This document shows positions 30,501 through 38,006 of a DNA stretch of 64,000 bases, in pieces (position 1 is the stretch's first letter; each line of letters begins with the position of its first letter). Made by a program: the position numbers. Origin of the DNA: Escherichia coli (GTDB lineage Bacteria; Pseudomonadota; Gammaproteobacteria; Enterobacterales; Enterobacteriaceae); the NCBI RefSeq assembly GCF_030384885.1, contig NZ_CP128613.1; one strand, given 5' to 3'.

Positions 30501-33500
30501 ATTCTGGCTGGGTAATCCGGCCATATGGGGTGAGGAGATAACATAATCTCCCGCCCACAAGCAGTAACTATAAAAATAACCCCACTCTCTACAAAGGCTC
30601 GGGGCGCCCGAAAAACGGGCATACAGGTTGACCGACAACGATATAAATCGGAATCAAAAACTATGTGTGGAATTGTTGGCGCGATCGCGCAACGTGATGT
30701 AGCAGAAATCCTTCTTGAAGGTTTACGTCGTCTGGAATACCGCGGATATGACTCTGCCGGTCTGGCGGTTGTAGATGCAGAAGGTCATATGACCCGTCTG
30801 CGTCGCCTCGGTAAAGTCCAGATGCTGGCCCAGGCAGCGGAAGAACATCCTCTGCATGGCGGCACCGGGATTGCTCACACTCGCTGGGCGACGCACGGCG
30901 AACCTTCAGAAGTGAATGCGCATCCGCATGTTTCTGAACACATTGTGGTGGTGCATAACGGCATCATCGAAAACCATGAACCGCTGCGTGAAGCGTTAAA
31001 AGCACGTGGCTATACCTTCGTTTCTGAAACCGACACCGAAGTGATTGCACATTTGGTGAACTGGGAGCTGAAACAAGGCGGTACTCTGCGTGAGGCTGTT
31101 CTGCGTGCTATTCCGCAACTGCGTGGTGCGTACGGTACAGTGATCATGGACTCCCGTCACCCGGATACCCTGCTGGCGGCTCGTTCTGGTAGCCCGCTGG
31201 TGATTGGCCTGGGCATGGGCGAAAACTTTATTGCTTCTGACCAGTTGGCGCTGTTGCCAGTGACCCGTCGCTTTATCTTCCTTGAAGAAGGCGATATTGC
31301 GGAAATCACTCGCCGTTCGGTAAACATCTTCGATAAAACTGGCGCGGAAGTGAAACGTCAGGATATCGAATCCAATCTGCAATATGACGCGGGCGATAAA
31401 GGTATTTACCGCCACTACATGCAGAAAGAGATCTACGAACAGCCGAACGCGATCAAAAACACCCTTACCGGGCGCATCAGCCACGGTCAGGTTGATTTGA
31501 GCGAGCTGGGACCGAACGCCGACGAACTGCTGTCGAAGGTTGAGCATATTCAGATCCTCGCCTGCGGTACTTCTTACAACTCCGGTATGGTTTCCCGCTA
31601 CTGGTTTGAAGCGCTCGCAGGTATTCCGTGCGATGTTGAAATCGCCTCTGAATTCCGCTATCGCAAATCAGCCGTGCGTCGTAACAGCCTGATGATCACT
31701 CTGTCGCAGTCCGGTGAAACCGCGGATACCCTGGCGGGTCTGCGTCTGTCAAAAGAATTGGGTTACCTTGGATCGCTGGCAATCTGTAACGTTCCTGGCT
31801 CTTCGCTGGTACGTGAATCCGATTTGGCGCTGATGACCAATGCGGGTACGGAAATCGGCGTGGCGTCTACTAAAGCATTCACCACCCAGTTAACTGTGCT
31901 GTTGATGCTGGTGGCGAAGCTGTCTCGCCTGAAAGGTCTGGATGCCTCCATTGAGCATGACATCGTGCATGGTCTGCAGGCGCTGCCGAGCCGTATTGAG
32001 CAGATGCTGTCTCAGGACAAACGCATTGAAGCCCTGGCAGAAGATTTCTCTGACAAACATCACGCGCTGTTCCTGGGCCGTGGCGATCAGTACCCAATCG
32101 CGCTGGAAGGCGCATTGAAGCTGAAAGAGATCTCTTATATTCATGCGGAAGCCTACGCAGCAGGCGAACTGAAACACGGTCCGCTGGCGCTGATTGACGC
32201 GGATATGCCGGTTATCGTCGTCGCACCGAACAACGAACTGCTGGAAAAACTGAAATCCAACATTGAAGAAGTTCGCGCGCGCGGCGGTCAGTTGTATGTC
32301 TTTGCCGATCAGGATGCTGGTTTTGTGAGCAGTGATAACATGCACATCATCGAGATGCCGCATGTGGAAGAGGTGATTGCACCGATCTTCTACACCGTTC
32401 CGCTGCAGTTACTGGCTTATCACGTTGCGCTGATTAAAGGCACTGATGTTGACCAGCCGCGTAATCTGGCAAAATCGGTAACGGTTGAGTAATTTTCATC
32501 ATTGATATAAAGGGCTGCCGACGGGCGGCCTTTTTTTTATAAAGGGTATCAGTGGGTTATTATTGATGCGAAAATTAATATAAATATATTCTGAATTATT
32601 GGTGATGTCCGATAATACACTTGATTTTTTACTGTTTTAATAATATTTAAATAATAAATTTATATTTAATTTCGCATAATTAATATTATTTTTAGATAAA
32701 TCTACCCCATTGGTGTACTATGCCTCTGAATCATAAATACACTTATTAATTTAAGTGATGATTTAGACTGAAGGATATATTATATCAATGGAGTTCGTAT
32801 GAAACGTAATATTATTGGTGGTGCACTTACGCTGGCATCTTTAATGTTAGCCGGAAATGCACTTGCAGAAGATGGCGTTGTTCACTTTGTCGGTGAAATT
32901 GTCGATAGCACATGTGAAGTGACTTCCGATACCGCCGATCAAACTGTTCCTCTTGGAAAAGTCAGTAAAAGCGCATTTGTCGCTGTAGGAAGCGTGGCAT
33001 CACCACAGGAATTCAGTATTAAACTGGAAAATTGCCCGGCAACTTATACTCAGGCTGCTGTTCGTTTCGATGGTACTGAAGATCCTGCCGGAAACGGCGA
33101 TCTGAAGGTGGGAACGCCGATGACTTCAGGCAACCCGGGTGATTACACTGGCACAGGGGCCGCCATTGCTGCGACGGGTGTAGCTATTCGTATCTTTAAC
33201 CGAGAGGATAACTCCCAGGTTAAACTTTATAATGATTCTACTTATACCCCTATCGCTGCTGACGGCACCGCTGAAATGAAGTTTATTGCACGCTATGTTG
33301 CAACCAGTGCGACCGTAACGGCGGGTACAGCAAACGCAGATTCACAATTCACCGTCGAATATAAGAAATAATTAATTCAGAGCCTTTTTATTCAGTTGGC
33401 TTTGGCCAGGGAGTCGTTATGTCCAGAAAAAGTTGTTTAATCAGGCTCTTTAAAGCAATAATTTCGCATAACTTATTATATATCATGCTACTAAGCGCCT

Positions 33501-36500: not shown

Positions 36501-38006
36501 TTCAAAACGCAAGTACCGCCGATTCAGGAATAGTCGGTGATTCTGGTGAGCTTTATCTCTCGGGTCTGTCAGATAAAGGGCAGGTCACTTTATCCTGGGG
36601 AGGAGACGCCGTCACGAAATGTACCTTTGGCTACTCACTTTCAGTACCAGAAAATGAGAATGGTTTAATTGAACAGAGTGTCACCTGTAAATAAAGGTTT
36701 TTTATGAAAAATAATATTCTGGTGTGGTGTTTTTCTATTGTTGCCATTTTTTACACGAGTACGACGCTTGCGGCTCCTAAAGGTATCTGTACTCCTGATA
36801 ATGGCGTTTTTCATAGTACACTGGATTTTACAGGGACCGTTATCAGCGCAGGTCAGAATAAAGCGGGGACCATATTTAATAAAATAGTCACTAATGGTCA
36901 GTCTTATCCGGGACGCTGTTACTGTGATACAGGAACGGTCGGTGAGTTTCCCTACATTTACTATACAGCAAGAATGAATGAAGCCTTAAGTTATGCTGGG
37001 GCTCATTCTAATTTAAATTACTATAATCTTAACCCTCATCTTGATACCGGCATAGCAATCGATCTTTTGGGTGTGGGGTTTGTTAATGCACCATTCGAGT
37101 ATCATGCTAATAATCCCGGTGGGAACACAAAGTATAATTGCGGTCGAAAGGAGGCATTAAACATTTCCAGTGGCGCTAAGGCTCAGATTTATTTTTATAT
37201 CAAAAAGCCATTTGCAGGAAAGTTAATGATTCCCGAAATACTTATCGCAAAGTTGTATGGAACGATCAGTCGTGATACACCGGTTGATTATTCTAAACCG
37301 ATGGCTGAGGTTTATATTCGTGGAGACATTACTGCACCACAAAGTTGTGAAATCAATAGTTTACAGCCTATTAATTTTGATTTTAGTACTATTCCAGCCT
37401 CAGATTTTTCATCTGTTGTCGGGAGTGCTGTGTCAGCGAGTAAGATCACCAGAACTGTCACCATTGAGTGTGTAAATTTGGGAATACTGAATAAGGATGA
37501 GATCACGACCTCTTTTTACGCTACTGAATCCAGTAGCGACAATTCAATGGTTGTAACATCAAACCCGAATGTAGGGATAAAAATCTACGATAAAAATAAC
37601 AGGGAAATCAACGTGAACGGTGGCGAATTGTCAACTGATATGGGAGCAACAAGCGTTTATGGTGATAAAGCTGGCAGCGTGACTTTTTCTGCTGCTCCTG
37701 CGAGCCTCACTGGTGCACGACCCGCGCCTGGAACATTTACTGCTACGGCAACAATCACACTCGAAATTGTTCGCTAATCAAACTGACAACGGTGCTCCTC
37801 GCACCGTTGTCATCAGACACCTCTTTCTAACCTATTTGCACATGACATGACGAAAAGATGACATGAGTTTTCTTTTTGTCTGGTTATAAAAATCAATAAA
37901 TTACGCATAAATCTCGTTGTGTCATAAAACTGTCATATTCCATACATATAACTGTCACCTGTTTGTCCTATTTTGCTTCTCGTAGCCAACAAACAATGCT
38001 TTATGA

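Follow-up and report, generated by a model that had tools for sequence, protein, structure and literature searches.

A rare allelic form of a fimbrial operon, very probably of the lpfO113/Lpf2/Stg lineage, between glmS and pstS of Escherichia coli

Which fimbrial operon lies between glmS and pstS in this Escherichia coli genome, which lpf allele does it carry, and how did it come to be there? We addressed this question in a stretch of 64,000 nucleotides of E. coli (NCBI RefSeq assembly GCF_030384885.1, contig NZ_CP128613.1), hereafter called the window, to which all coordinates refer unless another locus is named. Between glmS (30663-32492) and pstS (38025-39065) we found four intact open reading frames (ORFs) on the same strand, separated by gaps of 47, 24 and 9 nt, whereas the alignment to K-12 showed a 313-bp spacer without an operon at this site. 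An earlier reading made from the DNA alone, here called the sequence-only reading, had already stated that K-12 lacks the operon, and had described a compact arrangement of a major subunit, a PapD-like chaperone, an usher and a 357-aa tip adhesin; the ORF calls and the Pfam searches agreed with this description. We concluded that the operon is, very probably, an intact chaperone-usher fimbrial operon of the lpfO113/Lpf2/Stg lineage, and that the system is known but present here as a rare allelic form, untyped by the lpfA2-1 and lpfA2-2 primers.

The first gene, lpfA (32799-33371, plus strand), is present as a rare allele and encodes the major fimbrial subunit of 190 aa with an N-terminal signal peptide (...NALA/EDG), which matched the Pfam family Fimbrial (PF00419, 1.3e-24) over residues 29-189. 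It is followed by lpfB (33419-34150, plus strand) for a PapD-like periplasmic chaperone of 243 aa, with matches to PapD_N (8e-39) and PapD_C (2e-10). The outer-membrane usher gene lpfC (34175-36694, plus strand) encodes 839 aa from the annotated ATG, and an in-frame TTG at 34154, upstream of this ATG, would give 846 aa; the product matched PapC_N (2e-41), Usher (9e-186) and PapC_C (6e-17). The last gene, lpfD (36704-37777, plus strand), encodes the two-domain tip adhesin of 357 aa, in which a Fimbrial match (1e-23) was detected within the C-terminal half. Signal peptides were found on all four products, and a ribosome-binding site was also identified. The sequence-only reading had placed the operon at 32540-37900, which holds for the operon itself, but its end at 37900 lies about 120 bp beyond the last gene. 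A fifth gene, lpfD' or lpfE, was looked for as that reading had proposed and neither was present; the interval between lpfD and pstS is 247 bp.

From its sequence LpfD is predicted to begin with a receptor-binding domain (approx. residues 24-200), which is variable, and to end with a pilin domain, which is conserved. The protein aligned over residues 40-355 to the solved LpfD of the adherent-invasive E. coli (AIEC) strain LF82 (PDB 5AFO; E = 7.5e-26), with a sequence identity of 24%. An AlphaFold (AF2) model based on 13 homologues reached a predicted local distance difference test score (pLDDT) of 76.5 and showed two all-beta domains. When this model was used as query in Foldseek, 5AFO was the best match (template modelling (TM) score 0.72), and CfaE, FimH, CupB6 and PapG, which are two-domain tip adhesins as well, came next.

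To which family the operon belongs was examined with protein family models and with a survey of the glmS-pstS site in 5426 complete E. coli genomes. An lpfO113-type operon was found at this site in 1962 of the genomes and the O157-type lpf2 in 355, and about 57%, K-12 included, had neither. LpfA scored 366 bits against the NCBIfam model NF011817 (cut-off 203) and LpfB 490.7 bits against NF011818 (cut-off 317); from the numbering of these two models, which adjoins that of the StgD model, we infer a link to StgA and StgB. LpfD reached 230.5 bits against the StgD model itself (NF011819, cut-off 493). Against the models of Lpf proper all four proteins stayed below the cut-offs, with 91 of 221 bits for LpfA, 141 of 360 for LpfB, 741 of 1271 for LpfC and 138 of 412 for LpfD. 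On the same DNA in E. coli 2013C-4282 the NCBI annotation pipeline (PGAP) names the chaperone lpfB-O113 and the usher lpfC-O113, and names the major subunit and the adhesin only generically. The sequence-only reading, which had recognised an lpf-type operon at glmS-pstS, was therefore right about the type of operon, and its wording "lpf-like" can be refined to the lpfO113/Lpf2/Stg lineage and not Lpf proper. This lineage is called lpfO113 or lpf2 in work on E. coli that produce Shiga toxin (STEC), and Stg in work on avian pathogenic E. coli (APEC) and Salmonella (PMC4636846; PMC11184843; PMC10088187), and Stg and lpfO113 are widespread among STEC and APEC (PMC11184843). The lpf2 operons comprise 4-5 genes, and mutants show lower adherence to polarised Caco-2 cells (PMC4636846).

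The nearest known system is LpfO113, the lpfA2-1 type of the STEC serotype O113:H21, which is negative for the enterocyte effacement locus (LEE), and of many other E. coli, and the Stg of APEC. It shares with the window the site, the boundaries, the gene order, the protein lengths (190/243/840/357 aa), a homologous leader and a hairpin 3' of the operon, but the nucleotide identity is only about 82-85% and the synonymous divergence (dS) about 0.8-0.9. In comparison with the PGAP-named LpfO113 of strain RM10466 the amino acid identities were 87% for LpfA, 86% for LpfB, 91.5% for LpfC and 77% for LpfD.

The Lpf2 of O157:H7 (O-island 154, lpfA2-2) likewise shares the glmS-pstS site, the boundaries and the chaperone-usher architecture. 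It differs in having five genes (A2, B, C, D, D'), of which the chaperone gene B is split and lpfD' duplicates the adhesin, in an amino acid identity to the window of 58/63/39-43% (58% for LpfA), and in its usher, which the tree places with the Salmonella and Kluyvera operons. The four genes, the LpfA identity of 58% and mismatches to the lpfA2-2 primers ruled out the five-gene lpf2 of O157 as the identity of the operon. In the O157 strain AR-0429 (locus L002, 3519-4147) we observed that the lpf2 chaperone is annotated as two ORFs of 108 and 49 aa, i.e. lpfB2 is disrupted, which raises the question of fibre assembly by that operon.

In Salmonella enterica a Stg-type operon with the order A-B-C-D follows directly after glmS (locus L018), and the A and B proteins of the window pass the models beside StgD. 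The Salmonella operon differs by an LpfA identity of 69% (amino acids), an usher identity of 66% (nucleotides) and other genes between the operon and pstS. Lpf proper (Salmonella LpfABCDE; Lpf1 of O157, OI-141) is a related operon with a two-domain LpfD, and 5AFO was the best structural match. Lpf1 is located in O-island 141 and not between glmS and pstS. Lpf proper further differs by its five genes, including lpfE (PMC4636846). The four scores below the NCBIfam cut-offs and the absence of lpfE ruled out Lpf proper and Lpf1. With type 1 fimbriae (FimA/C/D/H) the operon has in common the assembly logic and the fold class of the two-domain tip adhesin, but it is without FimF/G adaptors, fimB/fimE recombinases and an invertible switch, and the receptor-binding domain of its adhesin is unrelated in sequence.

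Within the lpfO113-type operons the window belongs to a rare subclade. Operons with at least 93% identity were found in 18 of the 5426 genomes, and the remaining lpfO113-type matches were at approx. 82-85%. The lpfA allele occurred in one genome only, with the next best match at 87.3% nucleotide identity, and the lpfD allele in two. The 5.5-kb interval was 100% identical, save one base, to that of E. coli 2013C-4282 (NZ_CP027579; human stool, USA), and five other single-base differences separated this genome from the window over 38 kb. Because the exact LpfA protein was found on 102 public contigs, we concluded that a real lineage carries it.

Typing was simulated in silico with the primers of Torres 2009, taken from PMC5962669 (Table S1) and PMC3417533. 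The lpfA2-2 primers had 9 and 10 mismatches to the window and matched O157 exactly. With the lpfA2-1 primers 7 and 5 mismatches were counted, the 3' ends included; in the control, RM10466, one primer of the same pair had 3 mismatches, at its 5' end, and the other none. Which lpf allele the operon carries, a question left to comparison by the sequence-only reading, is thereby largely answered: the architecture is that of lpfO113, lpfA and lpfD are rare, and neither the lpfA2-1 nor the lpfA2-2 primers fit. The whole-gene lpfAO113 primers, in an unverified version of their sequences, had 2 and 0 mismatches to the window, which we take as a lead only.

The rare alleles are embedded in a mosaic. 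Compared with E. coli 2017-02-2CC, the window showed 95-100% identity per 100-bp step from the glmS stop codon to pstS, outside a patch of about 500 bp in lpfA (32890..33390, plus strand) with 71-93% identity. Over the whole gene the dS of lpfA was 0.52 with a ratio of nonsynonymous to synonymous divergence (dN/dS) of 0.15, as opposed to a dS of 0.02-0.04 for lpfB and lpfC. Judged by these values, the patch is an old allele brought in by recombination and not the result of rapid local change. The variation of lpfD is likewise modular; its differences lay mostly in the receptor-binding half, where dN was 0.11-0.14 as compared with 0.04-0.05 in the pilin half (subclade comparisons). Positive selection was not indicated, as dN/dS was 0.05-0.28 throughout; with such values everywhere, the differences in lpfA and lpfD are read as old alleles moved by recombination. 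The subclade goes together with unusual alleles of the flanking genes. The glmS allele of the window is at most 96% identical to that of about 5400 of the 5426 genomes, and pstS co-varies. Along the window, the identity to K-12 was 94.2-96.3% over 28890-56912 (glmU to tnaA) and 98.1% over 100-28010. The glmS allele and this drop in identity suggest that the lpf locus sits in a long haplotype of divergent sequence, which was imported or has been retained from ancient times.

Upstream, the spacer between glmS and lpfA is 306 bp long with 26.5% GC, the flanking genes having about 51-55%. The sequence-only reading had pointed to a very AT-rich region of about 260 bp before the operon, and indeed 32540-32798 measured 23.6% GC. 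The spacer begins with an intrinsic terminator of glmS (32509..32542, plus strand) made of an 11-bp G+C stem, a 4-nt loop and a U8 tail, with a folding energy of -18.2 kcal/mol (z = -4.0). Its stem is kept in all lpfO113-type alleles, and its sequence is unlike that of the K-12 glmS terminator. As this strong terminator stands ahead of the leader, lpf needs its own promoter, with a transcription start within the AT-rich leader. We presume that the leader (32543..32798, plus strand, approx. 24% GC) is the regulatory region; its core, 32583-32798, is conserved among lpfO113-type alleles, and a GGAG lies 8 nt upstream of the lpfA ATG. Four sigma-70-like sites on the plus strand were found in 32536-32666, with an overall count at chance level.

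That the leader is an H-NS-silenced promoter, as had been proposed, is plausible only, on the grounds of its AT-richness and by analogy to O157 lpf1. Control by H-NS and Ler has been published for O157 lpf1 only (PMC4288034), and the factors named for lpf2 are bile, iron and Fur (PMC4288034; PMC5357955). Our motif scans added little. The scan for the high-affinity H-NS motif gave one 8/10 match in the leader and 100 matches window-wide where 78 were expected, and was uninformative. A Fur box was also sought, as the lpf2 of O157 is reported to respond to Fur and iron. The best match in the leader was 13/19, a score that 80 of 200 shuffles also reached, and the leader of O157 did no better, so that the test was powerless. 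By analogy to most such operons, expression under laboratory conditions is probably kept low.

On the 3' side a stem-loop of 12 bp with a weak U tract (37784..37812, plus strand) follows 7 nt past the lpfD stop codon. It folds with -21.3 kcal/mol (z = -8.3), and a hairpin was found in the same place in RM10466 (locus L004), Pseudocitrobacter vendiensis and P. corydidari, where the bases that differ in the upper stem still pair. Probably it is the 3' end of the operon transcript or a stabiliser of it.

Could the operon then be a cryptic, decaying remnant that is silenced, is turning into a pseudogene and contributes nothing to the cell? Some observations point this way: in the near-identical RefSeq strain 2013C-4282 a 1-nt deletion in a G7 tract frameshifts lpfC, several genomes carry insertion sequences in lpfC or lpfA, the lpfB of O157 is split, and the extremely AT-rich leader is a typical substrate of xenogeneic silencing. 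However, the window and metagenomic contigs belonging to its lineage carry all four genes in intact form, the dN/dS of 0.05-0.28 in every gene and every comparison reflects purifying selection, and both the core of the leader and the 3' hairpin show conservation. We therefore consider decay to be improbable, though it survives better than the other alternatives, and retain the reading of an intact fimbrial operon.

The G7 tract itself (36138-36144, plus strand) leaves lpfC of the window in frame and the usher intact. In 2013C-4282 (NZ_CP027579) the same tract is G6, which results in the frameshifted lpfC. G7 was also found in the loci L005 and L006, and the tract is interrupted in locus L007 and in the common lpfO113 alleles. 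The G6 is either a homopolymer error or slippage. A slipped-strand switch for on-off phase variation of the fimbria would account for an in-frame G7 and a frameshifted G6 in almost identical genomes, and for the fact that an uninterrupted G tract occurs only in the rare subclade. Yet G6 is a single observation which a homopolymer error in a long-read assembly explains equally well, G7 is short for efficient slippage, and the tract has its in-frame length in two metagenomic contigs from this lineage. Such a switch seems to us doubtful, slightly more so than decay.

How did the operon come to lie at this site? The sequence-only reading called the glmS-pstS interval a reported integration spot for long polar fimbriae, a wording that is misleading. 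A horizontally inserted genomic island that uses the attTn7-adjacent interval would agree with the absence of the operon from K-12 and about 57% of the complete genomes, with an operon GC content of 41-49%, below that of the flanks, and with the incongruent phylogeny of the locus, where the trees built from the usher and from glmS disagree strongly. But no integrase, transposase or flanking direct repeats were found at the operon, and in the comparison with K-12 operons of the lpfO113-type and of the O157-type start and end at the same boundaries. Salmonella enterica, Escherichia ruysiae, Kluyvera and three Pseudocitrobacter genomes have orthologous four-gene operons in the same place, immediately following glmS. 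Moreover, breakpoints of exchange lie within the operon and the flanks, as homologous recombination predicts. An island insertion is thus very unlikely. From the synteny across taxa and the lack of mobility genes and flanking repeats it follows that the K-12 state is a loss or a replacement, and the simplest reading is that the locus is ancestral in Enterobacteriaceae, was lost in particular lineages (K-12), and had its alleles replaced through homologous recombination. In the Kluyvera locus L020 (10927-11457) we noted that the fourth gene encodes 176 aa, a single protein of pilin size and not a two-domain adhesin.

Exchange at this locus appears to extend beyond E. coli. The closest LpfA outside this species was that of P. 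vendiensis, with 98% amino acid identity, and a 340-kb contig of the type strain carries the same four genes at glmS-pstS. The block of high identity extends from approx. 32719 as far as the stop codon of lpfD (32719..37780, plus strand), with 94-98% for lpfA-lpfC. Individually, lpfA was 97.9% and lpfC 98.3% identical to the window at the nucleotide level, both with a dS of 0.06-0.07, and lpfB 94.0% with a dS of 0.18. The lpfD of P. vendiensis was 99.3% identical to the allele of E. coli N96. The flanking glmS and pstS of P. vendiensis, on the other hand, showed only 86% identity to the window and a dS of 0.75-0.77. The native Pseudocitrobacter operons, from P. corydidari and one other species, were 74-78% identical to the window, and the glmS and pstS of these species 95-98% identical to those of P. 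vendiensis. In a survey of 100,044 species representatives P. vendiensis was the only one with an LpfC match of at least 95%. Two other candidates were rejected as donors of the subclade, namely E. whittamii, which has a partial operon with 80-82% identity to all E. coli alleles, and E. ruysiae, with 66% only.

Because dS is low in lpfA-lpfC while that of glmS and pstS is about 0.75, the sequence comparison indicates a recent cross-genus allele replacement in P. vendiensis. An Escherichia-type donor and a Pseudocitrobacter recipient is the direction we infer, since the block nests in the allele diversity of Escherichia, is a mosaic of E. coli alleles and has Pseudocitrobacter DNA on both sides. 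Contamination with E. coli or a chimeric assembly, which the single named genome among the species representatives might suggest, is hardly credible, as the block lies within the 340-kb contig and is flanked there by glmS and pstS of the Pseudocitrobacter type (95-98% to P. corydidari), is itself a mosaic that differs by 2% from every E. coli allele sampled and has an lpfB segment of its own, and recurs on an independent metagenome contig (L100) beside a Pseudocitrobacter-type pstS that is 98.3% identical to that of P. vendiensis. We consider it rather probable, with less assurance than the family assignment, that the glmS-pstS fimbrial locus is a trans-species allele cassette, whose anciently diverged classes (dS approx. 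0.8-0.9 in E. coli) coexist and are swapped by homologous recombination, whole or in gene-sized pieces, also across genera, and in which an Escherichia-type operon with the rare lpfA replaced the native operon of P. vendiensis.

Several points weigh against this picture of an intact operon of known lineage and of its transfer. LpfC and LpfD both stayed below every NCBIfam equivalog cut-off. The scan for sigma-70-like promoters over 32400-38100 gave 9 sites as compared with 11.5 ± 3.7 in shuffles, which is chance, and no promoter was assigned from it. The frameshifted usher of the twin genome may mean that the operon is dispensable or switched off in some isolates, or may be a homopolymer sequencing error. 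The direction of transfer is drawn from tree topology and flank identities and is not proven. The fimbrial function of this allele, i.e. expression, piliation and binding, is a prediction from the genes. Finally, in O104:H4 the loss of lpfA2 led to only a partial phenotype (PMC4636846).

If the operon works according to the established chaperone-usher pathway, Sec would export LpfA, LpfB, LpfC and LpfD, and the chaperone LpfB would cap the subunits via donor-strand complementation. The usher LpfC would then recruit the two-domain adhesin LpfD first and polymerise LpfA by donor-strand exchange into a surface fibre. The predicted fibre would present the receptor-binding domain of LpfD to host surfaces.

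Some minor elements of the locus remain to be described. Inside the leader lies an imperfect inverted repeat with 33-nt arms (32558-32590 and 32653-32685), which are 85% complementary and 62 nt apart; arms of comparable length were found in 1 of 100 dinucleotide shuffles. Only operons of the rare subclade have the repeat, and in locus L007 it is degraded. Judged by this distribution it is probably not a conserved element, and a role as a switch was dropped, as the repeat is without conservation outside the rare subclade. A hairpin in the lpfA-lpfB spacer was no better than shuffles. At the right boundary (37913..38024, plus strand) the similarity to the K-12 spacer returns, with the pstS promoter and its CTGTCATAAAACTGTCATA repeats, which we take to be the Pho box.

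Other parts of the window also differ from K-12. Between atpC and glmU we found a gene (28157-28855, plus strand) for a 232-aa membrane protein of the Bax inhibitor-1/YccA family (PF01027, 9e-33), which is missing in K-12 (alignment gap of about 880 bp) and is in the same place in Salmonella and P. vendiensis; by this comparison K-12 probably lost it. After phoU, 5.2 kb (42591-47820) stand in place of the 9.4-kb bglGFBH-yieL-yieK-cbrBC block of K-12. This region holds, at about 42881-43644, a pseudogene fragment of a type III effector, followed on the minus strand (43783-44973) by an ORF of 396 aa with pentapeptide repeats and, at 45226-47673, by an ORF of 815 aa with a weak pentapeptide match only; in O157, too, phoU is followed by a large hypothetical gene, similar to this one. 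Between tnaC and mnmE lies a type III effector gene of the ShET2/EspL2 family (57205-59390, plus strand; PF07906, 3e-50), which is split into ORFs of 492 and 221 aa and annotated as frameshifted in RefSeq, and K-12 has only about 150 bp at this place.

The operon type is textbook knowledge and serves as a marker of STEC as well as of enteropathogenic E. coli (EPEC), and the understanding of chaperone-usher systems is unaltered by this analysis. Only two findings go beyond the ordinary, namely that an ancestral locus holds deeply diverged allele classes and that a recent replacement across genera took place in Pseudocitrobacter. The main value lies in the correct filing of the operon as lpfO113/Stg-type, and not as O157 lpf2 or Lpf1. 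PCR and allele typing with lpfA2-1 and lpfA2-2 would call this lineage negative or untypeable despite its complete operon. The major subunit LpfA and the receptor-binding domain of the adhesin are the most variable parts, and they are shuffled by recombination, also into a genus found in hospitals; host range and antigenicity can thus not be read from the name of the operon. If the locus is indeed a trans-species allele cassette, the unusual LpfA/LpfD pair of the window would represent an antigenic and receptor type of its own, which goes undetected in standard lpfA typing.

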